Assembly: GCF_963921235.1 (NCBI RefSeq)
Contig: NC_086097.1
Span: 109,432,001-109,496,000, forward strand
Source: Mobula hypostoma
Taxonomy: Eukaryota
Reading direction: 5' to 3'
DNA: 64,000 nt
Under the pieces are notes generated by a model, which was given only the letters and a program-made list of their open reading frames with translations, was not told the DNA's origin and searched no databases. Shown here one piece after another: positions 2,846-57,910 of this stretch. Each line of letters begins with the position of its first letter. Position 1 is the stretch's first letter. A program made the translations under genes and the position numbers.

Positions 2846-3169
2846 CTATTGACATAGAAAGATTATTATATTTTTAAAGCTTCTTCAAATTCCCTTAGGA
2901 TTCACCATAAGAGGAAGCTTACAGTGGTGATTAGTTTTAATATGTGCCCACCTTTGTGAAATTACCTGGCTTCTTTAATTTTAATAAACTGACACAAACG
3001 TAAGTTCACAGAAACAGATTGCAGTGTGGTAGACTTCAACCCCAACAGTAGCCTAGAGTTGATAAACCACACTGACTGAACTTGCCAAGTCCTGGGTGCT
3101 CAGCTGCCAGAGGCAAAGATTAAATAAGCAGATCAAGAGATAAACCTATTTGTCATCCTTATTAATTTG

Positions 3170-21575: not shown

Positions 21576-21584
21576 ATCTCAAAC

Positions 21585-21860
21585 CCCCATCCCCCTTTTC
21601 CTTCTCCCTGACCCTCCTGTCCCATGATCCTCTCATATCCCTTTTGCCAATCATCTGTCCAGGTCTTGGCTCCATCCCTCCCCGTCCTGTCTTCTCCTAT
21701 CATTTTGGATCTCCCCTGCCCCCTCCCACTTTCAAATCTTTTACTATCTCTTCCTTCAGTTCGTCTTGACAAAGGGTCTCAGCCTGAAACGTTGACTGTA
21801 CCTCTTCCTAGAGATGCTGCCTGGCCTGCTGTGTTCACCAGCAACTTTTATGTGTGTTGC
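21585..21860 (+). mobile_element. Penelope-like element 3'/pLTR fragment
   Basis: Pyrimidine-rich tract, then a hammerhead-like core, then gagatgctgcctggcctgctg…ccagcaacttttatgtgtgttgc. The same terminus occurs at 49927-50164. Confidence 0.75.
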
Positions 21861-24189
21861 ATATACTTATTGTAATTGTTTTTCCCCCTATATTACATGT
21901 ATAGCATTGTACTATTACCGCAAAGTTAACACATTTCACGACATATGCCGGTGATATTAAACCTGGTTCAGACTGTTTGGCAGTGAGTTCATTTGTACTG
22001 ATACCAAATGGGCAACTTTAATTTATGGCCCCAGCTTCAACAAAATGGGCAGTTGCCTGACGCCAAGGCGAAGGTCCAGGCTGGCAGGGCCTATTCGGGT
22101 GCAGAGCAATCGGAAGAATGAATAGGGCTGAGCGAGGAACAGGTTTGTCCACAATGGAGGAGAGTGGTACATTTGGAGGGAATTGTGGGTGGGATTTCTC
22201 AAGGAAGCTTAGGAAACAGAAAGTACAGGCAGATTTCTAGTGGCCAGGGAGGTGGTAGTGGGGAAGGTGGGGTGTGTGAATACCTGAATCAGGAAAATTT
22301 GTGTTTATTTAATTCAATATTTCAAACAATTTGTTTCATATACAATATTGACAATGACTTCCCATTCTGCAAAGGCTTCTGCAAAACATTCATTTATCAA
22401 AGCATTAGTGTTATTGATCTCTTAATCTGGTTCTTTATCAGGCTGTTAATGGCAATTTTCTCAAACATTCTTTAAAGAATGATCAGCATCAATATACATT
22501 TTTGTTTCTGAATGTGCGACTGGTTTGTAGATTTGGTCCCATTATACAGATAAGAATTATATTCATCCTTGAGTGAAGTATGATTCCAGAGCCCTCCGAC
22601 TTAATTAGATGTGCATTGAAATAAAACAAAAGTGAGGTGAAATGAAATTAGAGAATCAGGTGTAATTTTTCAATTTGCACAATTCATGTTGAATCTACAA
22701 TGTGACTTTTAGCTAATCCATTTATGAATTTACTTTACTTTCCACTATATCTCTGACCCTGGGGATTCATAAACTTCTATGCCTGCTAAGGCATTCAGTG
22801 CCTTCTCTTTATTTATTGAGGCTTGCACAAGGCTTAAATCTTCCCCTTTGCTAAATTCTCCAACTACAAATTATGTTTTTTGGTCAATAATGATGAAAAA
22901 CATTCATTTAAGACCACTGCTGTTCCTTCTACCTCCATTTACTGATTTCCTTTTTGGCTGCAATGGGCCTGCCTCTTCCCCGATTAGTCATTTGCCTTTA
23001 ATACATTAACAGAATGCCTTCAGATTTAATGTACTCCTGTCAACCATTGTTATTTTGTGACCCTTTTTGCCTTCCTGAATACTTTTTTAAGTATCTCTCT
23101 GCAATTCTTGTAATCCTGACTAGTCATATTTGTTTTTAGTTCCCAGTACCTTTCATACAATTTCTTCCTTTTGATTGTTTTATCCTTCAATATCCAAGGT
23201 TCCTTGAGCTTCTTACTCCTGGCTTTTGCCCTCAAAGGAATGTGTTGGCCCTGATTTCGTTCACATTATTTGAATGCCTCCTGCTGCTTCCCTTCTAACA
23301 TCACAGAGCTAGATTGAACTGAACTCAGCAGAACTGAATAAGCCTGGGTTGTGCATTGGTGTTTTATACTCCCTGTTTTTCATTTGTTTTACTTTTGCTG
23401 TTTGTGTGATTTTTTTTTGCACGTTTTGCGGGGGGGTTGATTTTTTAAAAATTCAAATGGATTCCATAGTGTTTCTTTGTTTCGTGGCTGTCTGTGGGAA
23501 GACAAATCTCAGGGTTGTATACTGCATACATACTCTGAGAATAAATGTCTTTGAATCTTTGCAGATACATGGATGGGAGGTGTATGGAGGGATATGGTCC
23601 GTGTGCAGGTCAGTGGGACTAGGCAGAAAATGGTTCGGCACAGCCAAGAAGGGCCAAAAGGCCTGTTTCTGTGCTGTAGTTTCTATGGTTTCTATATGGA
23701 TCTACAGGATATGCTGCCTTAAGAAGGCAACATCTGATAACAAAGATCCCACAATCTGTGTAATGCTGTCTACCACTGTTCAGGAAGTACAGAAAGCTGA
23801 AGTCCCACACCAGCAGGTTCAAGAACAACTATTTTCCTTCAAGCATATGGCTCTTGAAGTAATGGGCAAAACTATAATACTTATAGGTTAGCAAAACTGT
23901 GAACACTTTGACAATCCAGCAAAATAATGGAGGATTTTTTGTTCTAATTGCATTCTGTGTAAAAAAAATTGCATACAATTTATGTTTGGTTTACATTATT
24001 CTCCTGAAGGATTGCATATATGATGCCATGTGCCTGTGATGCTGCAGTGTGAAGTTTTTCTTTGTACCTGCACATACAACAGTAAACTCAAATCTGGCAG
24101 GCAAGAATTTGATTTGTCTGCAAGTAGTTGCATCTGGCCAACATTTTACAGGCCACGGAGTCATAGAAAAGCATAGCACAGAAACAGGC

Positions 24190-24627
24190 ACCAGGTGCAC
24201 CGAGATGCAGCTCCTCAGGGACTGTGTTAGGGATCTGGAGCTGCAACCTGATGACCTACTGCTTATTAGGGAAAGTGAAGAGGTGATAGACAGGAGCTAC
24301 AGGGAGGTAGTCATCCCTAGGCTACAGGGGTCAGAAAACTGGGTGACTGTCAGAAGAGGGAAGGAAAATGCCCGGATAGTGGAGAGCACCCCTGTGCTGT
24401 CCCCCTCAGCAACAAGTATCTTGCTGTTGAGGGGGATGACCTGACAGGGGACGCCCATGGTGACCGGGTCTCTGGCACTGAGCCTGGCGTTGTTGTGCAG
24501 GAGGGAAGGAGGGAGAAGAGGAATGCGGTAGTCATAGGGGATTCCATCGTCAGGGGAACAGACAGGAGATTCTGTGAGCGAGATAGAGATACCCGCATGG
24601 TGTGCTGCCTCCCAGGTGCCAGGGTAT
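24190..24627 (+). mobile_element. CR1 ORF1 fragment (SGNH/GDSL esterase type)
   Basis: Translates to …VRDLELQPDDL…WVTVRRGK… and AVVIGDSIVRGTDRRFC…MVCCLPGARV. Confidence 0.85.
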
Positions 24628-25888
24628 GGGATTTTTTGAGGAAATTACAAGTAGGCTAGACAAGGGAGATGCAGTGGATGTTGTATATTTGGATTTTCAG
24701 AAGGCCTTTGACAAGGTGTCACACATGAGGCTACTTAACAAGATAAGAGCCCATGGAATTACAGGAAAGTTACATACGTGGATAGAGTGTTGGCTGATTG
24801 GCAGGAAACAGAGAGTGGGAATAAAGGGATCCTATTCTGGCTGGCTGCTGGTTACCAGTGGTGTTCCACAGGGGTCCGTGTTGGGGCTGCTTCTTTTTAC
24901 ATTTTACATCAAAGATTTGGATTATGGAATAGATGGCTTTGTGACTAAGTTTGCTGATGATACGAAGATAGGTGGAGGGGCTGGTAGTGCTGAGGAAACA
25001 GAGAGTCTGCAGAGAGACTTGGATAGATTGGAAGAATGGGCAAAGAAGTGGCAAATGAAATACAATGTTGGAAAGTGTATGGTTATGCACTTTGGCAGAA
25101 GAAATAAATGGGCAGACTATTATTTAAATGGGGAGAGAATTCAAAGTTCTGAGATGCAACGGGACTTGGGAGTCCTCGTAGTGGATACCCTTCAGGTTAA
25201 CCTCCAGGGTGAGTCGGTGGTGAAGAAGGCGAATGCAATGTTGGCATTCATTTCTAGAGGAATAGAGTATAGGAGCAGGGATGTGATGTTGAGGCTCTAT
25301 AAGGCGCTGGTGAGACCTCACTTGCAGTACTGTGGGCAGTTTTGGTCTCCTTATTTAAGAAAGGATGTGCTGACGTTGGAGAGGGTACAGAGAAGATTCA
25401 CTAGAATGATTCCGGGAATGAGAGGGTTAACATATGAGGAACATTTGTCTGCTCTTGGACTGTATTCCTTGGAGTTTAGAAGAATGAGTGGAGACCTCAT
25501 AGAAACATTTCGAATGTTGAAAGGCATGGACAGAGTGGATGTAGCAAAGTTGTTTCCCATGATGGGGGAGTCTAGTACGAGAAGGCATGACTTAAGGATT
25601 GAAGGGCGCCCATTCAGAACAGAAATGCAAAGAAATTTTTTTAGCCAGGGGGTAGTGAATCTTTGAAATTTGTTGCCATGGGCGGCAATGGAGGCCAAGT
25701 CATTGGGTGTATTTAAGGCAGAGATTGATAGGTATCTGAGTAGCCAGGGCATCAAAGGTTATGGTGAGAAGGCGGGGGACTGGGACTAAATGGGAGAATG
25801 GATCAACTCATGATAAAATGGTGGAGCAGATTTGATGGGCCGAATGGCCAATTTCTGCTCCTTTGTCTTATGGTCTTATGGTCTTATG
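24628..25888 (+). mobile_element. Young 5'-truncated CR1 LINE (RT to tail)
   Basis: ORF to 25666 has YLDFQKAFD and FADD. Tail is (GGTCTTAT)n. Confidence 0.95.
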
Positions 25889-25974
25889 GATAGGTAGCCT
25901 TGAAAAAGCAGGGAAGCTATAGAAGAACAGATTAGGAGAATGGACAAAGAAATGGCAGACGAAATTTAGTGGAA

Positions 25975-28790
25975 ACCTTTAGGGGATCCTGCAGAAATCC
26001 CTTTGCACCTCAGATTTTTAAATTCCCCACCCTTTAGAAAGTAGTCTACACTTTTAGCCTTTCAACCAAAGTACATGACATACACTTCTCAACACTGTAT
26101 TCCATCTTTCACTTACTTTCCCATTCTCCTAATATGTCTAAGTCCTTCTGTAGCTTCCCTGCTTCCTGAACACGACCTCCCCTTCACCTAACCACATCGT
26201 CCACAAACAAGGCCACAAAGCCATTAATTCCATCATCCAAATCATCGACATACAACGTAGAACGGTTGGCATGGTACTGTTGTGGTTAGCACAATGCTTT
26301 GCAGTACAGGCAATCCGAGTTCAATTCTCACCGCTGCCCGAAAGGAGTTTGTATGTTCTCCCCATGACTGTGTGGGTTTCCTCTGGATTCTCCCTTTCAT
26401 CCCACAGTCCAAAGATGTACCAGTTGGTAGGTTAATTGGTCATTGTAAATTGTCCTGTGATTAGGCTAGGATTAAATCGGGGGATTGCTAGGCCTTGTGG
26501 CTCGAAGGGCTGAAAGGGCCTATTCTGTGCTGTATCTCAATAAATAAATAGAACCAGTCCCAACACTGACCCCTGCAGAACACCACCAGTCACCAGCAGT
26601 CAATTCAGTAAAGGCTCCTTTTATTCCTACTCTCTGTCTCCTGCCAATCAGCCAATACTCTATCCATGCTGCTGTTTATCTTACTAAGCAGCCTTATGTG
26701 CAGCACCTTGTCCAAGACCTTCTGAAAATCCAAGTACATCCAACATCCACCAATTCACCTTTGCCTATCCTACATCTTATTTCCTCAAAGAATTCCAACA
26801 GAATTAGGTGAAACATTTGCAATTTCCCAGTCCTCCAGAAACATGCCAAAATCTAGTGATTCTTGAAAGACCATTACTAGTGCCTCCACAGTCTCTTCAG
26901 CTACTTCTTTCAGAGCTCTGGGGTGTACTCCATCTGGTCCAGATAACTTTTCTACCTTTAGACCTTTCAGCTTTCTAAGCACCTTCTTCCTAGTAATAGC
27001 AGCTACACTCACTTCTACCCCCTGACACTCTCAAACTTCTGGCATACTGTTAGTGTCCTCCACAGCGACAACTGACCAAAAATACTTATTCAGCTCACCT
27101 TCCATTTCCTTGTTCCCCATTACTATCTCTCCAGTGTCATTTTCCAGCAGTCCAATATCAATACTTGCCTCTCTTTTACTCTTTATATATCTGAAAAAGA
27201 ACTTTTGGTATCCTCTTTGATATTATTAGCTAGCTTACCTTCATATTTCATCTTTTCCCTGCTTATGGTTTTTTTAGTTGTCTTCTGTTGGTTTTTGAAA
27301 GCTTCCTAATCCTCCAGCTTCCCATTAATTTTTTGCTCTATTATATACCCTCTCTTTTGCTTTTATGTTGGCTATGACTTCCCTTGACAGCCACGGTTGT
27401 GCCACCCTGCCTTTAGAATACTTCTTCTTTGGGATGTATTTTCCTGCACCTTCTGAATTTATCCCAGAAGCTCCAGTCATTTCTGCTCTGCCATCATTCC
27501 TGCTAGTATTCCCTTCCAATAAGCTTTGGCCAGACTCTGTAATTCCCTTGATCCCATTCTAATACTGATACATTTGACTTTCTCTTCTCCCTCTCAAACT
27601 GCAGGGTGAATTCTATAACATTATGATCACAGCTTGCTAAGGGTTCCTTTACCTTAAGCTCCCTAATCAAATGCAGTTCGTTATTTACGACCCAATCCAG
27701 AACAGTTTATCGCCACAAGCTGCTCTGAAAAGCCATCACCTTAGGCATTCTACAACTTCTCTCTTGGGATCCAGAATCAGCACCAACCTGATTTCCCCAA
27801 TTTACTTGCATATTGAAATCCCCCATGATTATCCGAACATTACCCTTTTGACATGTATTTTCTATATCCTGTTGAAACTTGCAGACCATGTCCTGGCTAC
27901 TGTTTTGAGGGCTGTTGTAATTCGCATCAGGGTCTTTATACCTTTGAATTTCCTTAACTCTATCTATAACAATTCTACGACTTCTGATCAATGATACCTC
28001 TTTCTAAGGATTTAATTTTATTTTTTAACCAACAGAGCCATGCCACTATCTCTGCCTTCCTGCTTGTTCTTTCAATACAATGGATACTACTTACAACCAT
28101 AATCTTCTTTCAGCCATGACTCAGTGATGCCCAAAATGTCATACCTGCCAATCTCTAACTGCGCTACAAAATCAACTACCATATTCCGTCAGTCCTGCCT
28201 TCATCACCCTTTTCGACTTTGTCCCTGCAACTCATCCCACTGACTGTAATTTTGCCATGTCATCTGCCTGTCCTTCCTCACAGTCTCACTACACACTTCC
28301 TCTGCTTGTAAACGAACAGCCTATCCTCAGCCCTATCACAGAGTTTATCATCCCCATGTCAAATTAGTTGAAACCCTCCCCAACAGTTCTAGTAATTCTG
28401 CCTGCAAGAATATTGGTCCCACTTGGGTTCAAGTGCACCCAAACCCGAGGGAGGACCAATATCCTCGTACAGATCATATCTTTCCCAGAAGAGATCCCGA
28501 TAGTCAAGAAATCTTAAACTCTGCCTCCTGCACCAGTTCTTCAGCCACACATTTATCTACCAAATCATTCTATTCTTAACCTCACCAGTGCTTGGCACAG
28601 GCAGCAATCCAGAGATTACTACCCTGGAGGTCTGGCTTTTCAGCTTTCTACCTAGCTCCCTAAATCCTCTCCTCTCCATTCCTACCTATGTCATTGCTGC
28701 CAATATGCACCAAGGCTTCTAACTGCTCACCCTTCCCGCTTAGAATGCCGTGGACCCAATCTGAGGTGCCCCTGGCCTTGGCACCTGGGT
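25975..28790 (-). mobile_element. Long decayed CR1 LINE (ORF1 end, EN, partial RT) with SINE insertion
   Basis: IIMGDFNMQVNW (27707-27991), PWLSREV and GPDGVHPRALKEVA fragments, with esterase-region sequence at 28440-28790. Confidence 0.85.
26264..26548 (+). mobile_element. HE1-like V-SINE
   Basis: tRNA-like head (GAGTTCAATTC B-box), V-domain GTGTGGGTTTCCTCTGG…CCCACAGTCCAAAGATG, CR1-like tail with (TAAA)n, and TSD TAGAAC at 26258-26263 / 26549-26554. Confidence 0.85.
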
Positions 28791-31584: not shown

Positions 31585-34500
31585 AAACATAGAAACATAG
31601 AAACATAGAAAATAGGTGCAGGAGTAGGCCATTCAGCCCTTCGAGCCTGCACCGCCATTTATTATGATCCTGGCTGATCATCCAACTCAGAACCCAACCC
31701 CAGCCTTCCCTCCATACCCCCTGATCCCCATAGCCAGATGGGCCATATCTAACTCCCTCTTAAATATAGCCAATGAACTGGCCTCAACTGTTTCCTGTGG
31801 CAGAGAACTCCACAGATTCACCACTCTCTGTGTGAAGAAGTTTTTCCTAATCTCAGTCCTAAAAGGCTTCCCCTTTATCCTCAAACTGTGACCCCTCGTT
31901 CTGGACTTCCCCAATTTCGGGAACAATCTTCCTGCATCTAGCCTGTCCAATCCCTTTAGGAGTTTATACGTTTCAATCAGATCCCCCCTCAATCTTCTAA
32001 ATTCCAACGAGTACAAGCCCAGTTCATCCAGTCTTTCTTCATATGAAAGTCCTGCCATCCCAGGAATCAATCTGGTGAACCTTTTTTGTACTCCCTCTAT
32101 GGCAAGGATGTCTTTCCTCAGATTAGGGGACCAAAACTGCACACAATATTCCAGGTGTGGTCTCACCAAGGCCTTGTACAACTGCAGTAGTACCTCCCTG
32201 CTCCTGTACTCGAATCCTCTCGCTATAAATGCCAGCATACCATTTGCCTTTTTCACTGCCTGCTGTACCTGCACGCCCACTTTCAATGACTGGTGTATAA
32301 TGACACCCAGGTCTCGTTGCACCTCCCCTTTTCCTAATCGGCCACCATTCAGATAATAATCTGTTTTCCTATTTTTGCCACCAAAGTGGATAACTTCACA
32401 TTTATCCACATTAAATTGCATCTGCCATGAATTTGCCCACTCACCCAACCTATCCAAGTCACCCTGCATCCTCTTAGCATCCTCCTCACAGCTAACACTG
32501 CCGCCCAGCTTCATGTCATCCGCAAACTTGGAGATGCTGCATTTAATTCCCTCATCCAAGTCATTAATATATATTGTAAACAACTGGGGTCCCAGCACTG
32601 AGCCTTGCGGTACCCCACTAGTCACTGCCTGCCATTCTGAAAAGGTCCCGTTTATTCCCACTCTTTGCTTCCTGTCTGCTAACCAATTCTCTATCCACAT
32701 CAATACCTTACCCCCAAAACCGTGTGCTTTAAGTTTGCACACTAATCTCCTGTGTGGGACCTTGTCAAAAGCCTTTTGAAAATCCAAATATACCACATCC
32801 ACTGGTTCTCCCCTATCCACTCTACTAGTTACATCCTCAAAAAATTCTATGAGATTCGTCAGACATGATTTTCCTTTCACAAATCCATGCTGACTTTGTC
32901 CGATCATTTCACTGCTTTCCAAATGTGCTGTTATCACATCTTTGATAACTGACTCCAGCAGTTTCCCCACCACCGACGTTAGGCTAACCGGTCTATAATT
33001 CCCCGGTTTCTCTCTCCCTCCTTTTTTAAAAAGTGGGGTTACATTAGCCACCCTCCAATCCTCAGGAACTAGTCCAGAATCTAACGAGTTTTGAAAAATT
33101 ATCACTAATGCATCCACTATTTCTTGGGCTACTTCCTTAAGCACTCTGGGATGCAGACCATCTGGCCCTGGGGATTTATCTGCCTTTAATCCCTTCAATT
33201 TACCTAACACCACTTCCCTACTAACATGTATTTCACTCAGTTCCTCCATCTCACTGGACCCTCTGTCCCCTACTATTTCTGGAAGATTATTTATGTCCTC
33301 CTTAGTGAAGACAGAACCAAAGTAATTATTCAATTGGTCTGCCATGTCCTTGCTCCCCATAATCAATTCACCTGTTTCTGTCTGTAGGGGACCTACATTT
33401 GTCTTTACCAGTCTTTTCCTTTTTACATATCTATAAAAGCTTTTACAGTCAGTTTTTATGTTCCCTGCCAGTTTTCTCTCATAATCTTTTTTCCCCTTCC
33501 TAATTAAGCCCTTTGTCGTCCTCTGCTGAACTCTGAATTTCTCCCAGTCCTCAGGTGAGCCACTTTTTCTGGCTAATTTGTATGCTTCTTTGGAATTGAT
33601 CGTATCCCTAATTTCTCTTGTCAGCCACGGGTGCACTACCTTCCTTGATTTATTCTTTTGCCAAACTGGGATGAACAATTGTTGTAGTTCATCCATGCAA
33701 TCTTTAAATGCTTGCCATTGCATATCCACCGTCAATCCTTTAAGTGTCATTTGCCAGTCTATCTTGGCTAATTCACGACTCATACCTTCAAAGTTACCCC
33801 TCTTTAAGTTCAGAACCTTTGTTTCTGAATTAACTATGTCACTCTCCATCTTAATGAAGAATTCCACCATATTATGGTCACTCTTACCCAAGGGGCCTCT
33901 CACGACAAGATTGCTAATTAACCCTTCCTCATTGCTCAAAACCCAGTCCAGAATAGCCTGCTCTCTAGTTGGTTCCTCGACATGTTGGTTCAAAAAACCA
34001 TTCCGCATACATTCCAAGAAATCCTCTTCCTCAGCATCTTTACCAATTTGGTTCACCCAATCTACATGTAGATTGAAGTCACCCATTATAACTGCTGTTC
34101 CTTTATTGCACACATTTCTAATTTCCTGTTTAATACCATCTCCGACCTCACTACTACTGTTATGTGGCCTGTACACAACTCCCACCAGCGTTTTCTGCCC
34201 CTTAGTGTTATGCAGCTCTACCCATATCGATTCCACATCTTCCCGGCTTATGTCCTTCCTTTCTATTGCGTTAATCTCATCTTTAACCAGCAACGCCATC
34301 CCACCTCCTTTTCTTTCATGTCTATCCCTCCTGAATATTGAATATCCCTGAACGTTGAGCTCCCATCCTTGGTCACCCTGGAGCCATGTCTCTGTGATCC
34401 CAACTATGTCATAATCATTAATAACAATCTGCACTTTCAATTCATCCACCTTGTTACGAATGCTCCTTGCATTGACACACAAAGCCTTCAGGCGCTCTTT

Positions 34501-34700
34501 TACAACTCTCTTAGCCCTTATACAATTATGTTGAAAAGTGGCCCTTTTTGATGCTTGCCCTGGATTTGTCGGCCTGCCACTTTTACTTTTCTCCATACTA
34601 TTTTTTGCTTCTACCCTCACTTTACACCCCTCTGTCTCTCTGCACTGGTTCCCATCCCCCTGTTGTGAACTAACCTCCTCTCGTCTAGCCTCTTTAATTT
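31585..34700 (-). mobile_element. Young CR1 LINE, 5'-truncated upstream of ORF2
   Basis: (TTCTATGT)n tail at 31585-31610, complete ORF2, and a QGDGNQ ORF1-end-like sequence near 34650. Confidence 0.97.
31687..34700 (-). CDS. CR1 ORF2: APE endonuclease + reverse transcriptase, uninterrupted
   Basis: Open ~1000 codons with EN motifs NARS, ITETW, GDFN, SDHN and RT motifs [23 protein letters not shown]. The first ~17 codons of the track ORF lie in the flanking element, and the true start is uncertain. Confidence 0.93.
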
Positions 34701-35592
34701 GAGGAAACTGGTAGGATGCAGAAGGACTTAGACAGATTAGGAGAATGGACAAGAAAGTGGCAAATGAAGTATAATGTTGGAAAATGCATGGTCATACACT
34801 TTGGTAGTAGAAATAAAAGTGTGCACTATTTTGTAAATGGGGGAAAAATCCAGGAATCAGAGATGCAGAGGGACTTGGGAGATCTTGTGCAGAATACCCA
34901 GAAGATTAACTTGCAGGTTGAGTTGGTGGTGAGGAAGGCAAATGCCATGTTAGCATTCATTTCAATAGGTCTCGAATACAAGAGCAAGGATGTAATGCTG
35001 AGGCTTTATAAGGCACAGGTGAAGACTCACCTTGAGTATTGTGAACAGTTTTGGGCTCCTCATCTTAGAAAAGATGTGCTGACATTGGAGAGGGTCCAGA
35101 GGAGGTTCACAAGGATGATTCCAGGAATGAAAGAGTTTTCATACGAGGAACATTTAACGGCTCTCTGTCTGTACTTGCTGGAAATCAGAAGGATGAGGGG
35201 GGACCTCATTGAAACTTTTCGAATGTTGAAAGGCCTAGACAGAATAGATGTGGAAAGGATGTTTCCCGTGGTGGAAGAGTTTAGGACAAGAGGGCACAGC
35301 CACAGAACAGAGGGGCGCCCTTGCAAAACAGAGATGTAGAGAAATTTCTTTTGCCAAAGGGTGGTGAACTTGTGCAATTTGTTGCCACATGCAGCTGTGG
35401 AGGCCAGGTTTTTGGGTATATTTAAGGCAGAGATTGATAGGTTCTTGACTGGTCATGGCATCAAAGGTTACGGGGAGAAGGCCAGGAACTGGGATTAAGG
35501 AGGAGACAGAAAAAAAGGATCAGCTATGATTGAATAGCAGAACAGACTCAATGGACCCAATGGCCTAACTCTGCTCCTATGTCTTATGGTCT

Positions 35593-37725: not shown

Positions 37726-38999
37726 TCATTTGGTGAGATGTGAAGGTAATTGAACATTGTGAGTACATTTCAATTTGATTCTTGCACAATCTCCTGTTCT
37801 ATTTGTGCACATCTTTACAAAAGAATAATTACCATTTGCAAAATCTTCATGTAAAACTGATACAAATTACTGAGCATTATACACAGGGTTAAATGAAGAT
37901 CACATGTGCAGTATAGAGGCACTGGCAGTGAAAATGTAGGAAAAATTTTGCTTCCAAATTCAATAGAAAAATCACAACTGCAAATTTTAACATCTTGTGA
38001 TGCTTGGCAAATTGTAGAGCAGGGTCATGCAAGCAGCGTGTGAACCTGAAGAGTGGACAATTAGTGAACCCCACCTTCATAGTTTTGATTCCACACTAGC
38101 CCTGCACCAATGTAGTTACCATCACATACACACTAGTATTTAGTTAGCCACAGGAAGAAAACTAACTTTATTTAAAAGAGCTACTTCCAGATTTGTTGGA
38201 GACTGATTCAAATTGCCTGACTTCATCTGACCTCCAAAATGGATTCCATCATGTTTTCCACACATTTGGAAGGACATCCACCAATAGTTCAAGCCACACA
38301 ATTTCAATTAGCACTGGCTAACTTTGATTCATGCTGAGAGGTCAGGAAGTTGGCTTTTGTGGACTTGTGGTAATGCAGTTCACAGTGTTTATGCATCTGG
38401 CTGGAACCTACAGTCAGCATCACAGAGGAGTTAGAATTACAATTTATATCAGTCAAACAGTTGCTTGTTAACAAAGGATCACAGTTCCATTACCTTTTTC
38501 CCAGTACCATCCAAAGTTCTCCCCAATTTTGTTTCAAATAATGCATTAAACTCAAGACCTACTCACTTGCATCATGGGATAAACATGTCCATGCAAAGGC
38601 AAAGGATTTTAAAAATTGTCATGATTACTTTCCATGTCTGAGTAACAGAGATAGTAGATTCAGGGTGTCACAGCTGACTAGGTAACCTCCTCAGTTTTAA
38701 CTTCCCTCACACTGAATAGTGGCGAACAAAATGTCAGCCAAAAGTTATAAATAATTAGAGAGAGTAAAATCCAATAAGGCTGTACTGGATTCCTTAACAA
38801 GCAAGGTACAGGCAGAAGGTCCAAAAAACTCACAAGCAAAGTCAAAATATTAAAAAACACATTAACTAGAGATTCCTACAAACAAAGACACTTCCCTTCT
38901 TCTTCTTCTTGTGTTGTTTTATGGCGGTTGTCAAACCAGCTTTAAGGTGCATTACCGCCACTTGCTAGACTTGTGGTGTTCCGATTTCAACCAAATACT

Positions 39000-39521
39000 C
39001 TACTTTAGGCAACCTAGTTCAGCCTGCAGATCTCTATTTGCATCACTCTGTAATTGCAATTCCTCTCGCGAATGCTGTATACGCTCATTAAATAGCAGTG
39101 CCACAAACTGCTTTTCTTCCCTAATTTTTGTCACATGGTTTGCAAGTAATTGCATTACCTCAATTACATTGACTTCATCTGTATCATTTGTAAGACTAAA
39201 ATCTTCTTGTTTAAGAATATTAATTATCGCATGCTTAACTTTTAAAATTGCTGTTTTTCAAGTCCATCTGCTATTTCCAAGTTTTCCTTTTCTTGAATCA
39301 TAGCCTGTAGTTGTTTACTGAGATCTCGAAGTTCTTTTTCATTTGCTTCCATATTTTCATTTTATACAGTAATCTGAATGTAGATAATTCACTTTGCAAC
39401 AATTCCTTTTCCATTTGTAACTTCGTAATAAGTTCCTCCATTTTTCCAATCTCTGTTCCAACTCACAGTTGTTCTTATTGAGAACTTCTATTTGTTGTTG
39501 GAGCTCTGCACAGTTACCCTG
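39000..39521 (-). pseudogene. GCC2: Captured coiled-coil coding fragment resembling golgin GCC2 (GCC185)
   Basis: With three +1 repairs it reads QGNCAELQQQIEVLNKNNCELEQRLEKMEELITKLQMEKELLQSEL…LSKQLQAMIQEKENLEIADGLEKTAILKVKHAIINILKQEDFSLTNDTDEVNVIEVMQLLANHVTKIREEKQFVALLFNERI…*. This is colinear with the central human GCC2 region as recalled from memory; not database-checked. Confidence 0.65.
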
Positions 39522-39636
39522 GGTTTCTTGTATACATAAAATCTGAGGTTTTTCCTTAAGTTCTGATACATATTTCTTAAATTCTTGACCATTTGCAATA
39601 AGACCCCTTGCATTCATTGTAAAATATATACTGCCA

Positions 39637-40806
39637 TTAATATCCCACCTCCCTGCCTGTGAACTGTTTGATCTTCCATTCAGCGTTTCTTTGACTACTT
39701 CCAACCTAAGCCCTGTAATACCAAGATATTTTTCTGCAGACTTGACTATAATTTTAATTTTTCAGTTCTTTTGTTTGTTTGCGCTGAGTAGTTAATTGCA
39801 TTTACCATAAACAGTACGAAATCCTTTCTAATCATTATTAGTGTATCCTTATTTATCATATTACAGCCATCACAATTCACCAGTTTATTATTCCCTGTAT
39901 TTGTTTACTTGATAGCCTTCTCCTTTTCAGCAAATCCTTTCACTGCCTCTGCGTAACTGATCCCTTGAGTTACTTTTACATATTGTAACTCAGCTGCCTT
40001 CTTGGTATTAATGCACCCTCGGTAAACTGCACTGTGTTCCTCGCCACAATTGCTCCCGCCTTACATTTCCCATATTCATGTTCTCCAGCCCATCTCCCAC
40101 ATCTTTGTCTCCCCCTGCAAACCGCTGCAATGCGCCCGAATTTCTGACATTTAAAGCATCTTAAAGACGATGGTATATATATTCTGACCTCATAACACAT
40201 ATGCCCTGAATAAACTTTAGTCGGCAATCTCTCTTCATCAAATTTAATCATAACCAATAAACTATCACGCTCTTTTCCGTTTCTTGTAACTTTCAAACGT
40301 TTGGCCTCAATAATTTTTGCTCCTTTTATGTTCTGTTTAATTTCATCCATAGTAACTTTTGTTGGTATCCCTGAAACATCTCCTCTAGTCCACTTTCTAT
40401 TGTTGGGTATTGAGCATTGTACTTTTTTGCCATCTATTTTATTTAATCTTATCACTTTGCCTTGTTGAGCACTGTCCCGACAAATCACTAATAGCAAACC
40501 ATTTCGTAAAATCTTTGCTCTTTTGACCTCACCTATAAGTTTGTTGATCATGTTCGTCAAATGAATCGAGTTTCAATCACCAAAAGATTCGCTCGGTTTT
40601 ATAATTGCTTTAATCTCATCTTCTTTCCATTGTTTTGCTATCCTATTTTGATCATCACCTGACTCCTCAGGGTTTGACATCTCATACCTCTGTTTTCTTT
40701 TCTTACTCTTTCCACTCCATTCCTCTTTCCCTCCAAACTCCATCTCTAACTCACTTCCACTAACTGGTTCACCTCCGACCAAAACTCTCCACGCCACCTT
40801 ACTCAT
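39637..40806 (-). pseudogene. Nimb/I-type ORF1 (gag-like, Zn knuckles), disrupted
   Basis: RCFKCQKFGRIAAVC, RCGRWAGEHEYGKC, (C)NCGEEHSAVYRGC, SYAEAVK, with a stop and frameshifts. Confidence 0.85.
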
Positions 40807-41084
40807 CCTGCCGGTGGTCTTGTGACCTGAGCTACTGAGTATCCAACCAGACCCAGCCGAGCGGTTCCAGCCCAAAGGCAATTCCGAGGCTGAGCAAAGA
40901 AGTAAAGGAGAAAGGACTTAGATAGGGCTATAAACAAAGCACAGGTGATAACAAGTAACTAATAATTAGCCTAAGAGACAGATGAGCAGGAAGGGGTTGG
41001 CCTTGTTATCTCTGCCTCCCACTGGTGGCCAGTTTGAGGTGTGACACAAGGTTGGAATATGCAAATAAATCATAGAGAAGAGGA

Positions 41085-41875: not shown

Positions 41876-43334
41876 TGATCTCTTAGAATCAGAGAACTGC
41901 TAAAACCAAATTAAATATATTGTGACATATAGATTTTAAAGCAAAGTCTGTAAATGGGTTGGATTAAATAAGATTTCATAAATAGTTGCTTGAACATCCC
42001 TTAACAATGAAATTATTTCTTTATGTTTCTTTAAAAGCATAACATTTTATCTGAGTCTTTTACTTACTTTCTGAAAGTTCTGCAATTTTAAAAATATTTT
42101 TCTTTCTGCTTGCAGCTACAGTTGAAGTTCTTATTTCTATTAGCATCCAGACCACCATAACTCAGTTGGACTTAACTTGAGCAATAGGGTAGAAACATCA
42201 AGAAAACACTAAGTGTTCCAGTTAGGTGAATAGTATGAAGACCTACATTTGAACGTGACAACTCAAGATGTTTTCATAAACAGCACTTCATTAAAATAAA
42301 TGAATATACAAATTAGCATCTGACTACGTGTATAAAACACAGGTGGACGGTTGATTGATGTTTACAACCAATGTGCTCTTTCCTCTCATCTTTCCATTTG
42401 CAAATGCTCTCTGTCTTCCCATTGTTCCTTTTTTTCGTACCTGTAATCATGTTTCAGGGTGAATTTATGAAGACATCAAAGCTTTCTAGATCCTAAAATC
42501 GCAAGGATTTTTATTTTCAAATTATGCAAATTGTGTTCTGCTTCACTGCATGCATTCAATAGCATTGAATTCTCTGGGTATATGAGGTAGAAAGAGATGG
42601 AGGTCTAATAATTTATCTGCAGCAGACAACATTGTTGTGTGTGACTCAAGTGCATCTTGATATTTATATATGCCAATTGTAGAATGGTGGCCATTGTGTG
42701 CAATTTGCAATGTCTGCAAAATTCCATTTACGTGCTTGATACACTTTGATCATGTAGAATATGTGTTTCAGATGACAGAGTAAACTCAAAGGTTCAAAGG
42801 GTTCATTTTATTGTCAAAGTGTGCATGTACAATACAACTGTGATATTTGTCTTCTCCAGATAGCCATGAAATACAGAAAAAACATGGGAGTCATTGAAAG
42901 AAAAAAACATTAACCCCCCCCAACATGAAAAGGAAAACAAAACAAAATAGGCAAACCCCAAAACCCCAACACCCTCCCTTGCAAAAAATCAGTGACAATA
43001 ACATCAAACCCCATCACTTGTTATGGAATACTTATATGGGGCATTAGCAGTCACATTTTGCTTTGGAAGTATTGTGAAACAGTGGAGAGAAATCAGATTT
43101 TCATGGCATTCTATTCACTCCATTCATCTTCAAATGGACCATACAGCCACTTTACACACCCTAAAGTACTGCACTTTGGCAGCGATTTGAGGAACTGGAA
43201 CTGGAAGGTTATACAATGCAGTCACTGCTGCAAATACATTGGATACATTGACAGCAAACATCCTTTGTAAAGAAACACACAAACTTTTTCATCTTGTTTT
43301 CCCATTGCTGGTGACTGATCTACCCATTTAGTTT

Positions 43335-45025
43335 TGGTTTTGGTGATAATTTACCAAAATTCTCTGGACTCTGAGCAAGTCCCAGCGGATTGGAAGAAGG
43401 CAAATGTCACACCACTGTTCAAAAAAGGATGTAGGCAAAATGCAGGTAACTATAGACCAGTTAGTTCAACATCTACAGTTGGGAAAATGCTTGAAACTAT
43501 CATTAAAGAAGCAATAGTGAGGCATCTGGAAAGAAACGGATCCATCAGGCAGACACAGCATGGATTCAGCAAAGGCTGTTTGTTTGTTTGTTTAACAAAC
43601 TTTCTGAAGTTCTTTGAGGATATAATGAGTGCAGTGAATAGAGAGGAACAGATGGATGTTATTTACTTGGATTTCCAGAAGGCGTTCGATAAGGTGCCAC
43701 ATAAGATATGGATGCATAGAGTTGGGGGATATGTATTAGCATGGATAGAGAATTGGTTAGCCATTAGAAAGCAAAGAGTTGGGATACATGTGTTGTTTTT
43801 CTGGTTGGCAATCAGTGGTGAGCAAAGTGCTGCAGGGGTCGGTGCTCAACCTGCAACTGTTCACAATAGTCATAGTCATACTTTATTGATCCCGGGGGAA
43901 ATTAGTTTTCATTACAGTTTCACCATAAATAACAAATAGTAATAGAACCATAAATAGTTAAATAGTAATATGTAAATTATGCCAGTAAATTATGAAATAA
44001 GTCCAGGACCAGCCTATTGGCTTAGGGTGTCTGATCCTCCAAGGGAGGAGTTGTAAAGTTTGATGACTTCCTATGACGCTCTGTTAATAGTCATTAACAA
44101 TCTGGAAGAGGGGACAAGTGTATCGAAGTTTGCTGATGACACTAAATTCAGTGGAAATGCAAATTGTGCAGAGCTTATAGAGAGTCTGCAGAGAGACATA
44201 GATAGGTTAAGTGAGAGGGCAAGGGTCTGGAGATGGAATTCAATGTTGGTAAATGCTAGGTCATCCTGTTTGTAAGGGAAAATGGAAGATCAGATTATTA
44301 TTTAAATAGTAAAAGATTGCAGCTTGCAGCTGTGCAGAAGGACTTGGGAGTGCTTGTGCATGAATTGCAAAAGGTTGGTTTGTAGCTGCAGCAGGCATCA
44401 AGAAGGCAAATGGAATGTTGGCCTTCATTGCTAGAGGGATTGAATTTTAGAGCAGGGGGTTATGCTGCAACTGTACAGGGTACTGGTGAGGCAGTATCTG
44501 GAGTAATGCAGGCAGTTCTGGTCTCCTTACTTGAGGAAGGATATACTAGCTTTGGAGGTGGTGCAGAGGAGGTTCACCAGGTTGATTCCAGAGATGAGGG
44601 GGTTAGACTATGAGGAGAGATTGAGTCACCTGGGACTGTACTCACTGGAATTCGGAAGGATGAGAGGAAATCTTAAAGAAACATAAAATTATGAAAGGGA
44701 TAGATAAGATAGAGACAGGAAAGTTGTTTCCATTGGCCTCAGGATTCAGGGGAGTAAATTTAGGATGGAGATGAGGAACTGCTTTTCACGAAGAGTGGTG
44801 AATTGGTGGAATTCTCTGACCAATGAAGCAGTGGAGGGTACCTCAGTAAATATATTTAAGACAAGGTTAGATAGATTTTTGCACAGTAGGGGAATTAATG
44901 GTTATGAGGAAAAGGCAGGTAGGTGGGGATGAGTCCATAGCCAGATCAGCCATGATCTTATTGAATGATGGAGCAGGCTCAACGGGCCAGATGGCTGACT
45001 CCTGCTCCTATTTCTTATGTTCTTG
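43335..45025 (+). mobile_element. Decayed CR1 LINE with Rex1 tail insertion
   Basis: WKKANVTPLFKKG…NYRPVS…YLDFQKAFDKVPH and KFADDT, ending in a ttcttatgttctt tail. Confidence 0.9.
43865..44085 (-). mobile_element. Rex1-like 3' fragment
   Basis: Reverse complement of 59325-59550 with a (GACTAT)n tail. AATAGTCAT is repeated at both junctions. Confidence 0.85.
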
Positions 45026-53518: not shown

Positions 53519-54654
53519 TTATTTTAACAAAATCTTCATTTTCTCTTCTTAACAGAGACATTTTTAAAATATACTTTCCACTTCTGCCTGAATCATTACT
53601 CTTCTGTAATTGTTAATACCACCAGTTAGAGCATCCCTCACTCAAATAGCATCAGTCAGTTAACTATATGTGAACTTCAGTAGTCTGGGTTATACATGGA
53701 TTGCTGATTATTGTCACAGAATTTCACTGATGATAGAAATATAAAACCACAACTTTCCATGTAAACTTTTTGGAGTCTTTTTGAGAAAATTCAAAACCTA
53801 TAGGAACTATCATGTATAAAATAGAAACATAGAAAACCTACAGCACAATACAGGCCCTTCGGCCCACAAAGCTGTGCCGAACATGTCCTTACCCTAGAAC
53901 TACCTAGGCTTACCCATAGCCCTCTATTTTTCTAAGCTCCACGTAGCCATCCAGGAGTCTCTTAAAAGACCCTAACGTTTCCGCCTCGACCACCGCCGCT
54001 GGCAGCCCATTCCACGCACTCACCACTCTCTGCGTATATAAAAAAAATTACCCTGACATCTCTTCTGTACCTACTTCCAAGCACCTTAAAACTATGCCCT
54101 CTCGTGCTAGCCATTTCAACCCTGGGAAGAAGCCTCTGACTATCCACACGATCAATGCCTTTCATTATCATATTATCAGGTCACCTCTCATCCACCGTTG
54201 CTCCAAGGAAAAAAGGCCGAGTTCACTTAACCTGTTCTCATAAGGTATGCTCCCCAATCCAGGCAACATCCTTGGAAATCTCCTCTGCACCCTTTCTATA
54301 GTGTCCATGTCCTTCCTGTAGTGAGGCGACCAGAATTGAGCACAGTACTCCAAGTGGGGTCTGACCAGGGTCCTATATAGCTGCAACATTACCTCTTGGC
54401 TCTTAAACTCAATTCCACGATTGATGAAGGCCGATGCACCTTATGCCTTCTTAACCACAGAGTCACCTGTGTAGCAACTTTGAGCGTCTATGGATTCGGA
54501 CCCCAAGATCCCTCTGATCCTCCACACTGCTAAGAGTCTTATCATTAATTTTATATTCTGCCATCATATTTGACCTACCAAAATGAACCACCTCACACTT
54601 ATCTGGGTTGAACTCCATCTGCCACTTCTCTGCGCAGTTTTGCATCCTATCAAT

Positions 54655-57486
54655 AGACAATAGACAATAGGTGCAGGAGTAGGCCATTCGGCCCTTCGAG
54701 CCAGCAACGCCATTCACTGTGATCATGGCTGATCATCCACAATCAGTATCCAGTTCCTGCCTTATCCCCATAACTTTTGATTCCACTATCTTTAAGAGCT
54801 CTATCCATCTCTTTCTTGAAAGCATCCAGAGACTTGGCCTCCACAGCCTTCTGGGGCAGAGCATTCCATATATCCACCATTCTCTGGGTGAAAAAGTTTT
54901 TCCTCAACTTCGTTCTAAATGGCCTACCCCTTATTCCTGTTGTTTCCCTTATTCTTAAACTGTGGCCTCTGGTTCTGGACTCACCCATCAGCGGGAGTAT
55001 GCTTCCTGCCTCCAGCGTGTCCAATCCCTTAATAATCTTATATGTTTCAATAAGATCCCCTCTCAGCCTTCTAAATTCCAGAGTATACAAGCCCAGTCGC
55101 TCTAAGCTTTCAACATATGACAGTCCCTCCATCCCAGGAATTAAACTTGTGAACCTAAGCTGCACTCCCTCAATAGCAAGAATGTCCTTCCTCAAATTTG
55201 CAGACCAAAACTGCACACAGTACTCCAGGTGTGGTCTCACCAGGGCCCTGTACAGCTGCAGAAGGACCTCTTTGCTCTTATACTCAATTCCCCTTGTTAT
55301 GAAGGCCAGCATGCCATTAGCTTTCTTCACTGCCTGCTGTACTTGCACGCTTGTTTTCACTGACTGATGTACAAGCACACCAAGATCTTGTTGTGCTTCC
55401 CCTTTTCCTAACTTGACTTCATTTAGATAATAATCTGCCTTCCCGTTCTTACCACCAAAGTGGATAACCTCACATTTATCCACCTTAAACTGCATCTGCC
55501 ATGCATCTGCCCAATCACTCAGCCTGTCCAAGTCACCCTGTATTCTCATAACATCCTCCTCACATTTCACACTGCCACCCAGCTTTGTGTATTTGCTAAT
55601 GTTACTTTTAATTCCCTCATCTAAATCATTAATATATATTGTAAACAGCTGTGGTCCTAGCACTGAACCCTGCGGTACCCCACTGGTCACCGCCTGCAAT
55701 TCCAAAAGGGACCTGTTAGTCGCTACTCTTTGTTTTCTGTCAGCCAGCCAATTTTCAATCCATGTCAGTACTCTGCCCCCAATACCATGTGCCCTAATTT
55801 TGCCCACTAATCTCCTATGTGGGACTTTATCAAAGGCTTTCTGAAAGACCAGGTACACTACATCCACTGGCTCTCCCTTGTCCATTTTCGTAGTTACATC
55901 CTCAAAAAATTCCAGAAGATTAGTCAAGCACGATTTCCCCTTCGTAAATCCATGCTGACTTGGACCAATTATGTTACTGCTATCCAGATGTGTTGTAATT
56001 TCATCTTTTATAATTGACTCCAGCATCTTTCCCACTACCGACGTCAGGCTAACTGGTCTATAATTCCCTGTTTTCTCTCTTCCTCCTTTCTTAAAGAGAG
56101 GGACAACATTAGCCACCCTCCAATCCACAGGAACTGGTCGTGAATCTATAGAACATTGGAAAATGATTACCAATGCGTCCACGATTTCTAAAGCCACCTC
56201 CTTAAGTACCCTGGGATGCAGACCATCAGGTCCCGGGGACTTATCAGCCTTCAGACCCAACAGCCTATCCAACATCATTTCCTGCCCAATATAAATTTCC
56301 TTCAATTCATCCATTACCCTCGGTCCTTTGGCCACTGTTACATCTTGGAGATTGTTTGTGTCTTCCCTAGTGAGGACAGATCCGAAGTACCTGTTCAACT
56401 CATCTGCCATTTCCTTGTCGCCCATAATAAGTTCACCCACTTCTATCTTCAAGGGCCCAGTTTTGGTCTTAACTATTTTTTCCCTCTTCACATACCTAAA
56501 GAAGTTTTTACTATCTTCCTTTATATTCTTGGCTAGTTTACCTTCGTACCTCATTTTTTCTCCGCGTATTGCCCTTTTAGTTACCTTCTGTTGCTCTTTA
56601 AAAGTTTCCCAATCCTCCAGCTTCCCACTCGTCTTTGCTATGTTATACTTCTTCTCTTTTATTTTTATACTGTCCGTTACTTCCCTTGTCAGCCATGGCC
56701 TCCCCTTACCCCCCTTAGGATCTTTCTTCCTCTTTGGAACGAACTGATCCTGCACCTTCCGCATTATTCCCAGAAACACTTGCCATTGCTGTTCCACTGT
56801 CATCCCTGCTAGGGTATTGTTCCATTGAACTTTGGCCAGCTCCTCCCTCATAGCACCATAGTTCCCTTTGTTCAACTGTAATATTGACACTTCCGAGTTT
56901 CCCTTCTCCCTCTCAAATTGTAGAGTAAAACTTATCATATTATGGTCACTACCTCCTAATGGCTCCTTTACCTCAAGGTCCCTGATCAAATCCGATTCAT
57001 TGCACAACACTAAATCTAGAATTGCATTCTCTCTGGTAGGCTCCAGTACAAGCTGTTCTAAGAATCCATCTCGGAGGGACTCCACAAACTCCCTTTCTTG
57101 GGGAAAGGGACCAACCTGATTTCTACAGTCTACCTGCATGTTGAAGTCCCCCATAACAACTGTAGCATTACCCTTGCGACATGCCAATTTTAACTCTTGA
57201 TTCAACTTACACCCTACATCCAGACTACTGTTTGGGGGCCTGTGGATAACTTCCATTGGGGTCTTTCTACCTTTAGAATTTCTCAGTTCTATCCCTACTG
57301 ACTCTACGTCTCCTGATTCTATGTCCCCCCTCGCAAGGGACTGAATGTCATTCCTCACCAACAGAGCCACCCCACCTCCTCTGCCCATCAGTCTGTCCTT
57401 TCGATAGGACATATACCCTTGAATATTCATTTCCCAGGCCCTGTCCACTTGAAGCCATGTCTCTATTATTCCCACAACATCATACT
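54655..57486 (-). mobile_element. CR1 LINE (third subfamily), 910-aa open ORF2 remnant with dead RT
   Basis: (CTATTGT)n tail and TSD CTATCAATA. The ORF 54743-57475 has YLVFQKAFD and ISKYTKLGG (FADD lost). Confidence 0.95.
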
Positions 57487-57824
57487 ATCAATATCCCATT
57501 GTAACCTCTGACAGCCCACCACACTATCCACAACACCCCAACCTTTGTGTCATCAGCAAATTTACTAACTCATCCCTCCACTTCCTCATCCAGGTCATTT
57601 ATAAAAATCATGAAGAGTAGGGGTCCCAGAACAGATCCCTGAGGCACTCCCTGAGGCACACCACTGGTGACCGACTTCCATGCAGAATACGACCCATCTA
57701 CAACCACTCTTTGCCTTCTGTGGACAAGCCAGTTCTGGATCCACAAAGCAATATCCCCTTGCATCCTATGTCTCCTTACTTTCTCAATAAGCCTTGCATC
57801 AGTTACCTTATCAAATGTCTTGCT

Positions 57825-57910
57825 GAAATACATATACACTACATCTACTGTTCTTAGAAATCCATATACACTACATCTACTGTTCTTAGAAATCCATATA
57901 CACTACATCT
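57825..57910. repeat. 32-bp tandem repeat (~2.7 copies)
   Basis: GAAATCCATATACACTACATCTACTGTTCTTA repeated within a CR1 RT. Confidence 0.9.

Follow-up and report, generated by a model that had tools for sequence, protein, structure and literature searches.

The window analysed here, a 64,000-nucleotide (nt) stretch of Mobula hypostoma (NC_086097.1), carries at positions 38896-40872 of the minus strand an old, decayed copy of a non-autonomous family of long interspersed nuclear elements (LINEs), the half-LINE family, of which it belongs to subfamily A. Very probably, the half-LINEs have kept the first open reading frame (ORF1) of an autonomous LINE parent and carry, in place of most of ORF2, a piece of a coding exon of the host gene GCC2 that is a non-coding stuffer. 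The family structure comprises a leader, ORF1, 43 codons of ORF2 (..ILCIQETWLKP), ~640 nt of GCC2, 44 nt of the parent's reverse transcriptase (RT) domain, a tail of ~75 nt and (AAG)n. An earlier note on the window had described the GCC2-like piece as an in-frame replacement of ORF2; its donor and the multi-copy nature of the element are borne out below, and the frame is not.

The half-LINE family and its autonomous parent

A genome search with the whole element yielded 63 matches from 1252 first-look candidates. In 27 of the 29 non-self loci that were fetched, the LINE part is combined with the GCC2 part; in the other two (L027 and L029), which are copies of the parent, the match ends at element position 1350 and an ORF2 follows. 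Occurrences of the joints were counted genome-wide with 34-mers allowing up to 3 mismatches, and the reversed-pattern controls gave 0 in each case. The joint between the endonuclease (EN) stub of ORF2 and GCC2 occurs 429 times (41 exact) on many contigs, the joint between GCC2 and the RT piece 286 times, and the uninterrupted parent sequence at the same EN position 32 times (14 exact). The 3′ flanks vary from copy to copy, and 9 of 16 inspected copies, in unrelated flanks, are each framed by a unique 12-16 nt direct repeat that has no more than 1 mismatch. The joint counts and these target site duplications (TSDs) establish what had been proposed from the single copy, namely a multi-copy family with the same chimeric joints and different flanks.

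Parent copies read on past the joint as ..WLKPQLDFVLQGY.. into Exo_endo_phos_2, RVT_1 and RNase_H, the Pfam domains found in the parent ORF2 (RNase_H E 8e-15). Five parents (L041, L042 and L055-L057) are 86-92% identical to element positions 114-1350 and 87-93% identical to its last 76 nt, and the last 76 nt in the window, including (AAG)5, match the 3′ ends of L041, L042 and L055 at 92-93% identity. The autonomous parent thus has both the 5′ part and the last 75 nt in common with the element, and a 28-nt RT piece is located within the parent ORF2. All tail-bearing copies and parents terminate in (AAG)n-like runs. Judged by architecture alone (an ORF1 of its own, and an ORF2 with APE endonuclease, RT and RNase H), the parent appears to be an I-group-like LINE. 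The element itself yielded no RT domain to frame reading or Pfam, and only the 43 ORF2 codons and the 44-nt RT remnant are left.

The copy in the window

On the minus strand, the order leader, ORF1, TAATG, EN stub, coiled coil, TAG and tail is read directly, as originally described. The features are the following:

40873-40885, no strand assigned: candidate 5′ TSD copy of 13 bp, GGAATTGCCTTTG on the minus strand, 11/13 match to 38895-38883
40807-40872, minus: 5′ leader, boundary uncertain (other copies align only from 40823 or lower)
39637-40806, minus: ORF1 remnant, broken here (ATG at 40806, TAA at 39639-39637; three-frame reading)
39635-39639, minus: TAATG, overlap of ORF1 stop and ORF2 start (read directly)
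39522-39637, minus: ORF2 stub, N-terminus of the APE endonuclease (alignment with parent copies)
39002-39521, minus: GCC2 coding-exon fragment in sense orientation (protein and DNA matches to GCC2)
38970-39001, minus: RT-domain remnant of the parent, 32 nt here and 44 nt elsewhere (match inside parent ORF2)
38911-38969, minus: parent LINE 3′ terminal sequence with the inverted repeat GUGGCGGU/ACCGCCAU (parent 3′ ends)
38896-38910, minus: (AAG)5 terminal repeat (read directly)
38883-38895, no strand assigned: candidate 3′ TSD copy, GGAAGTGTCTTTG on the minus strand, pairing with 40873-40885

The endonuclease N-terminus of the window reads ..NARGLIANGQEFKKYVSELKEKPQILCIQET, ending in ...ILCIQET. 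The coiled-coil coding stretch is closed by the TAG stop at 39002-39000, and the inverted repeat GGCGGT/ACCGCC lies between this stop and (AAG)5. The last 3-4 nt of the insert in the window are assigned to it only tentatively, and a private 12-nt deletion has left 32 nt of the RT piece that follows.

ORF1 in the window contains in-frame stops, private deletions of 2 nt (~40588), 16 nt (~40054) and 1 nt (~39763), and 47 substitutions in 1100 columns relative to five subfamily-A copies. The three zinc knuckles that the earlier note assigned to ORF1 are a property of the family, exemplified by L002 (CFKCQKFGHIAAVC..CGSCAGEHDYGKC..CCNCGEEHSTAYRGC), and not of this copy, in which all three are damaged: the first lacks the H, the second lacks one C, and the third is struck by the 16-nt deletion. 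A Pfam search produced nothing above threshold for either ORF1 or the GCC2 piece of the window; in ORF1 of other copies, zf-CCHC is found below threshold (E 0.004-0.012). In other copies and in the parent, ORF1 ends in ..AGEAGN* and the same TAATG overlap opens MAVYILQWNARSL.

GCC2 as the donor of the insert

The last 84 codons of the insert gave three protein matches, all of them GCC2 (of stingray, devil ray and sawfish), the best being stingray GCC2 with 81% identity over 96% of the query (E 1e-30); the earlier note's naming of GCC2 as the donor is thereby upheld, in that no other protein was found. An all-protein profile search with the 84-amino-acid (aa) piece returned a single match, a 1691-aa GCC2 of two sharks, with 45% identity at the homologous position. 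Conservation of this segment in shark GCC2, together with the repetitive nature of the element, shows that the transfer proceeded from the gene to the element.

In the 3.48-Gb assembly, the GCC2 gene lies on contig C21, where an 833-codon exon covers residues 98-930; further GCC2 exons follow 30-40 kb downstream, and the other exons match only at C21:134.50-134.54 Mb. At the DNA level, the insert is identical to this exon (L031:3043-3672) at 73 of 77 (95%) and 391 of 435 (90%) positions, and its counterpart in P0002, the 1721-aa ray GCC2, spans residues 655 to ~867, gene nt 78-204 of the segment being deleted from the insert. The gene segment itself is identical to residues 655-864 of the devil-ray protein P0002 at 210 of 210 positions. 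The captured ~640 nt fall inside a single 2.5-kb exon (L031:1492-3993), and their ends, at 3043 and ~3682, are both more than 300 nt from the exon edges.

The captured stretch (P0002 ~655-867) is the least conserved part of GCC2 in all pairs of P0001-P0004 (two rays, a sawfish and a shark), with identities of 91.0 versus 93.7-95.3%, 75.6 versus 84-90% and 57.3 versus 64.5-78.4% for this part and other parts, respectively. The idea that the element caused faster evolution of GCC2 was rejected, given that this part is the least conserved in every pair, shark and sawfish included.

The joints and the founding event

The sequence across the 5′ joint is ..CAAGAAACATGGTTGAAACC|AC(A/G)ATTAGATTTTG.. 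in the parent, ..ACAGAGGAG|CAGGGTAAATGTGCAG.. in the gene and, without exception, ..GAA(A/G)CC|CAGGGTAAATG.. (core GAAACC|CAGGGT) in the 36 aligned chimeric copies, with no clear microhomology. On the 3′ side, gene homology stops at ..GAACTAGGT, and the next ~10 nt still encode the ancestral GCC2 residues G-C-L. There follow 44 nt identical to the interior of the parent RT domain (..YLVENGTPQG..), a piece between GCC2 and the tail that was unremarked in the earlier note and whose source in the parents L042 and L055 lies in the ORF2 interior, ~1.85 kb upstream of the tail. This RT piece is joined to the final ~75 nt of the parent at a common AG. No A-rich or (AAG)n run is present at any internal joint. 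The founder accordingly had at least three novel joints, not two.

A single founding event made the three novel joints that are now common to hundreds of copies. The element itself would subsequently provide the ORF1 protein, and the ORF2 protein of an autonomous partner would supply reverse transcription and integration in trans, recognising the shared 3′ end with (AAG)n and giving TSDs of 12-16 bp. As to the founding event, serial template switches of the RT between LINE RNA and a GCC2 transcript stand at about even odds. A competing scenario, somewhat short of an even chance, places the origin of the chimera at the DNA level, for instance when a broken master LINE was mended with captured GCC2 DNA or cDNA and a short LINE filler. 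The joints, with 0-2 nt of microhomology and 3-4 nt of filler, resemble those produced by end joining, and the donor lies within one exon, so that there is no intron loss to mark an RNA intermediate. However, all parts are in sense orientation and in the 5′-to-3′ order of the LINE, an arrangement expected from serial template switches and obtained by random DNA capture only half the time, and double template jumps of LINE RT are documented (PMC2104539).

Subfamilies and exchange of the 3′ end

The subfamilies differ in what they have lost from the insert. In the oldest-looking forms (the L033 type and subfamily B), only 45 nt are deleted; subfamily A, to which the window's copy belongs, has lost 127 nt (gene nt 77-203) and a single T from a run of Ts; and subfamily C lacks 128 nt and has further indels in the insert, in addition to a 15-nt deletion in the EN stub (17 of 36 copies). 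Subfamily B consists of gene nt 1-159 and 205-591 followed, via an AATTA-like overlap, by another 3′ end, ATTATACATCCTGCGGAGGGCAG..CTGCCGGAAATAG(AAG)n. The core of this tail B occurs 194 times genome-wide and the joint between GCC2 and tail B 45 times. A tail-B variant with compensating changes in the arms (GGGCAG..CTGCC versus GGGCTG..CAGCC) terminates a different LINE (L062:2960-3050), the last ORF of which resembles the RNase-H/C-terminal region of the parent, and for this reason subfamily B can be said to have traded its own 3′ recognition end for the one carried by a sister LINE. Tail B is present in L020:3336-3405, L032, L034, L036, L030, L059, L026, L028, L061 and L060.

Several smaller observations concern the arrangement of copies. 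The insert is tandemly duplicated in L024, L037, L038, L040 and L058, and the same joint at which the sequence goes back, with the same 15-17 linking letters, is found in contigs of X1, X3 and X14 (L007:2490-2929). On contig C91 (29.48-29.58 Mb), three subfamily-A-like copies (L045, L046 and L047) lie within 100 kb; two of them have the same match structure but face opposite ways, the appearance being that of a local inverted segmental duplication and not of separate insertions.

An upstream sequence of ~160 nt with the motif CATAAATAG is common to 7 of the 16 inspected subfamily-C copies (L004, L006, L009, L011, L014, L016 and L025), and the same seven copies repeat a 12-16 nt motif (GCYTCWGNGGCTG-like) directly after the (AAG)n tail. 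A correspondence between this module and the 150 nt upstream of the window's copy was rejected (alignment scores of 11-20 against shuffle maxima of 16.5-20). In L004 and L016, another LINE, with its 5′ part and ORF1, comes after the tail; two chimeric copies, L010/L024, stand head to tail; and L033 (200-285) lies directly behind the (AAG)n tail of another element. These arrangements suggest that copies have inserted into resident elements at their tails or 5′ ends, which would produce head-to-tail arrays.

Age and spread

The inserts of individual copies diverge from their own group majority by 3.2-4.6%, and the group majorities differ from the gene at 29 of 502 sites in A, 46 of 538 in B and 64 of 488 in C. 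At 8 residues where the GCC2 of the genome itself departs from the state common to stingray and sawfish, the element has the shared state at 6 and the unambiguous own-lineage state at 0; because ancestral GCC2 residues are kept at 6 of these 8 sites, the capture predates most of the changes that the host gene underwent in this lineage.

Public runs under four organism labels contain 0.20-0.39 of the sampled words of the chimeric stretch; one of the labels may be that of the source species. Contigs of one label (A) bridge the 5′ joint and both 3′ joints, those of labels B and C bridge both 3′ joints, and those of label D bridge only the joint between the RT piece and the tail. Among the contigs listed for X14, the 5′ joint and the GCC2-to-RT-piece joint are not bridged by 31 nt on both sides, and in X3 the 5′ joint is bridged, but with just 30 nt on one side. 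No RNA run is listed for the chimeric stretch, and the contigs examined came from DNA runs alone.

Selection on ORF1 and on the captured piece

Copies were grouped by a tree of the ORF1 region, and the majority states in each column were compared between the groups. The ORF1 majority states form an open frame of 382 codons in groups A and B and in the parent, with one stop in C. Between the chimera groups, the ratio of nonsynonymous to synonymous substitution rates (dN/dS) is 0.24-0.32 in the ORF1 frame versus 0.68-2.65 in the two wrong frames. The ORF1 columns that vary among A, B and C are distributed over codon positions 1, 2 and 3 as 19/24/48 (p 0.0004), and those of the GCC2 part as 23/22/19 (p 0.82), the two distributions being different (Fisher p 0.005). 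In the GCC2 part, the corresponding ratio of nonsynonymous to synonymous polymorphism (pN/pS) is 0.47-0.56, the same as the 0.45-0.62 of the wrong frames. The insert gives no sign of a maintained fusion ORF: the group majorities carry frameshifts in the insert, and the pN/pS values equal those of wrong frames. Since ORF1 displays an excess of third-position changes and the insert displays none, ORF1 was maintained as a gene under selection while the lineage diversified, and the GCC2 piece was carried along as non-coding stuffer.

Points against this account and alternative explanations

A number of points weigh against the account given here. No intact master copy was encountered among the ~60 loci read, each of which has a broken ORF1 or insert, and no intact parent ORF2 among the five parent places. 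The group majorities derive from small samples (6, 9, 17 and 3 copies), and for copies compared with their own group majority pN/pS is 0.44-0.50, a measure whose neutral baseline is below 1. In the ORF1 tree, the parent clade falls in among the chimera groups, and the constraint on ORF1 could stem in part from exchange of 5′ parts with autonomous partners. Mobilisation in trans is deduced from the shared ends only, and because the donor segment has no intron, the sequence expected here after RNA template switching does not differ from that expected after DNA-level joining. The stem-loop of tail A folds no better than shuffled sequences (z -1.09), with a compensatory change in 1 of 10 pairs. 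Finally, the TSD of the window's own copy and its 5′ end at 40872 are weakly supported. The flanking 13-bp repeat with 11 of 13 matches is present as the earlier note described it, but it is weak as evidence for a TSD: it is equalled by 26 of 1000 shuffles if the repeat has to start within 8 nt of the tail and by 40 of 500 under looser rules, and a rival direct repeat with 11 of 12 matches exists at 40939-40928/38887-38876. The 5′ end at 40872 is uncorroborated because no other copy shares sequence upstream of 40823 (copies enter at q50-77, or at query positions of at least 138), and most subfamilies and the parent diverge from the window already upstream of ~40761 (about q112).

The observations on ORF1 might also be explained by repeated re-acquisition of 5′ parts from evolving autonomous partners, with the third-position excess reflecting selection on the partners and not on the half-LINE itself. 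The 5′ leaders do differ between subfamilies upstream of about q112, the nesting of the parent clade fits such exchange, and the 3′ end has demonstrably been exchanged once. Nevertheless, all groups have one and the same EN|GCC2 joint directly downstream of ORF1, and any 5′ exchange must therefore have ended inside the 1.2 kb upstream of the joint; we regard this explanation as unlikely. It is less probable still that the GCC2 piece has been kept for a role of the RNA in cis (as a spacer, or in stability or transport) and is not an inert passenger. In all subfamilies, 460-640 nt of the piece have persisted through the long evolution of the master lineage, during which the majorities came to differ from the gene at the numbers of sites given above (29/502, 46/538 and 64/488), yet what was lost from it differs between subfamilies (45, 127 or 128 nt, with the final 39 nt missing from B), and parts are tandemly duplicated in some copies. 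A broader proposition, in which the insert either is retained for helping the element RNA or gives rise to small RNAs that cross-target the host GCC2 mRNA, is a long shot. Several hundred sense and antisense GCC2 pieces of ~0.5 kb, 87-94% identical to the gene, sit in a retrotransposon that has to be silenced in the germline, and such small RNAs could come from them. If the proposition held, the half-LINE would amount to an ORF1-only parasite of long standing that changes autonomous partners and carries a host exon, with consequences for host GCC2.

The reading of the insert as part of an EN-stub::golgin fusion protein that works for the element, which the earlier note envisaged for the family as a whole, is very improbable. 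From the ATG at 39617, the window's reading frame does pass through EN-like residues into QGNCAELQQQIEVLNKNNCELEQRLEK without a stop, but the alleged ~173 codons without a frame break dissolve on inspection. The ORF from this ATG has 86 codons (39617-39357), only ~26 of which are in the GCC2 frame before it departs from GCC2; the GCC2 frame is broken by the 127-nt deletion at ~39445, a private 5-nt insertion at ~39368-39364 and a 1-nt deletion at ~39240, and the original coiled-coil reading is obtainable only with three frame changes. From the ATG of TAATG, the window encodes just MAVYILQ* because of a private 1-nt deletion. Nor was ORF2 replaced in frame: the founder-type joint sets GCC2 one base out of the EN frame, which then reads ..ILCIQETWLKPRVNVQNSNNK*. 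The window alone, 1 of 36 copies, lacks the 11 nt ATGGTTGAAAC between two GAAAC repeats, a deletion that brings GCC2 into an EN-like frame, so that the EN-stub::golgin ORF of the window can be put down to its private 11-nt and 1-nt deletions. Measured from the TAATG ATG, GCC2 is in phase 2 in 22 of the 32 copies with both landmarks, in phase 1 in 7 and in phase 0 in 3, the last three through private indels in each case. With 29 of 32 copies out of phase with the ORF2 ATG, frameshifts fixed subfamily-wide in the insert and no codon-position bias there (23/22/19), the family encodes no such fusion.

The ORF2 stub is likewise not conserved as coding sequence, because the stub of subfamily C, which reads MAVYLSQMVKNLRNVSELKENPQILWLKPR.., is no longer endonuclease-like in the ATG frame; in that subfamily (for example L021, L025 and L006), the GCC2 joint lies 86-88 nt from the TAATG ATG, not 128. 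The possibility that the window represents the real GCC2 locus, or a GCC2 pseudogene beside LINE debris, has next to no probability, as nothing speaks for it except the GCC2 similarity itself, whereas the gene and more of its exons lie on C21 and the two joints are spread over many contigs, with 429 and 286 occurrences.

Comparison with known systems

Among DNA transposons, Pack-MULEs, Helitrons and CACTA elements carry pieces of host genes and amplify them; their capture mechanisms are different, whereas the carrier in the ray is a non-LTR (long terminal repeat) retrotransposon. Judging from literature listings and abstracts, the capture and amplification of gene fragments is well documented for DNA transposons and rarely met for LINE-type elements, for which the nearest precedents are single chimeric insertions and the SVA/MAST2 subfamily. 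The literature, surveyed through listings and abstracts with subscription journals and Repbase outside the scope, offered no account of a GCC2-carrying retrotransposon or of this ray family, and titles and abstracts on Mobula transposable elements contained nothing on this element.

Vertebrate L1 is not known to have an RNase_H domain or CCHC knuckles in ORF1. HAL1, as characterised in PMC5753468, is a non-autonomous, multi-copy LINE derivative that encodes only the ORF1 protein and arose from its partner. The likeness to HAL1-type ORF1-only LINEs seen by the earlier note is real, in that ORF1 is the sole part of the ray element under coding constraint and the RT is gone. The differences are that the ray parent is not L1-like, that host coding sequence and a 44-nt remnant of the RT stand where ORF2 was lost, and that one subfamily has changed its 3′ end. 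Because the parent has RNase H and CCHC knuckles, the ray element works like HAL1 but is not a HAL1.

RIME/ingi represents a non-autonomous element that keeps both ends of its autonomous partner, and we know of no report of foreign host coding sequence in either RIME/ingi or NARTc/L1Tc. Both pairs resemble the ray element in the retention of both ends of the partner, although a selected ORF1 is not their hallmark; NARTc is a truncated version of L1Tc, according to PMC5814959.

[quoted passage not shown] That exon lies at the 5′ end and was acquired through transcription or splicing from the MAST2 promoter, whereas the ray piece is internal, does not end at exon borders, involves no splice site and is present in several hundred copies. 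Chimeras generated by template switching of LINE RT, among them bipartite and tripartite ones of Magnaporthe and mammals as well as U6/L1 and mRNA/L1 chimeras, and including double jumps, are treated in PMC2104539 and bioRxiv 10.1101/2025.02.02.635956. As in the ray element, pieces of different transcripts are fused directly in one orientation with the LINE 3′ end last; unlike it, they are mostly dead-on-arrival single insertions with a LINE part only at the 3′ side, whereas the ray product returned to the LINE 5′ part, kept ORF1 and became a long-lived mobile family. For zebrafish Nimb-2_DR, a LINE with ORF1 and ORF2 of the Nimb clade (I group), PMC4245944 gives TSDs of 10-15 bp with a peak at 12-13 bp. 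The 12-16 nt repeats of the ray copies are in a similar length range, the likeness being one of architecture and TSD length alone.

The ray element accordingly is a natural case, from a cartilaginous fish, of a LINE that lost ORF2 to a piece of a host exon and yet long remained mobile, combining a selected ORF1 with an unselected captured piece and a 3′ recognition end that was later exchanged. It raises the questions of whether LINEs other than L1 need ORF1 in cis, how strict 3′-end recognition is in this LINE group, and whether host sequence, once captured, has any bearing on the element or on the gene it came from. For annotation, the hundreds of GCC2-like fragments in this genome should be treated as transposon cargo and not as paralogues.

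Other features of the window

Beside the half-LINE, the window contains five long open frames that are remnants of LINE ORF2:

31690-34791, minus: LINE ORF2 remnant, APE and RT
54746-57484, minus: LINE ORF2 remnant, APE and RT
18681-21023, minus: LINE ORF2 remnant, RT
24587-25663, plus: LINE ORF2 remnant, RT
43319-43936, plus: LINE ORF2 remnant, RT

These frames are 1034 and 913 aa (APE and RT) and 781, 359 and 206 aa (RT) long, and their DNA is unrelated to that of the half-LINE. Strong GC skew in 2-kb windows (-0.33 to -0.37, and +0.33) characterises positions 16001-22000, 24001-28000, 32001-34000 and 54001-60000, and these blocks overlap the long LINE ORFs in part.

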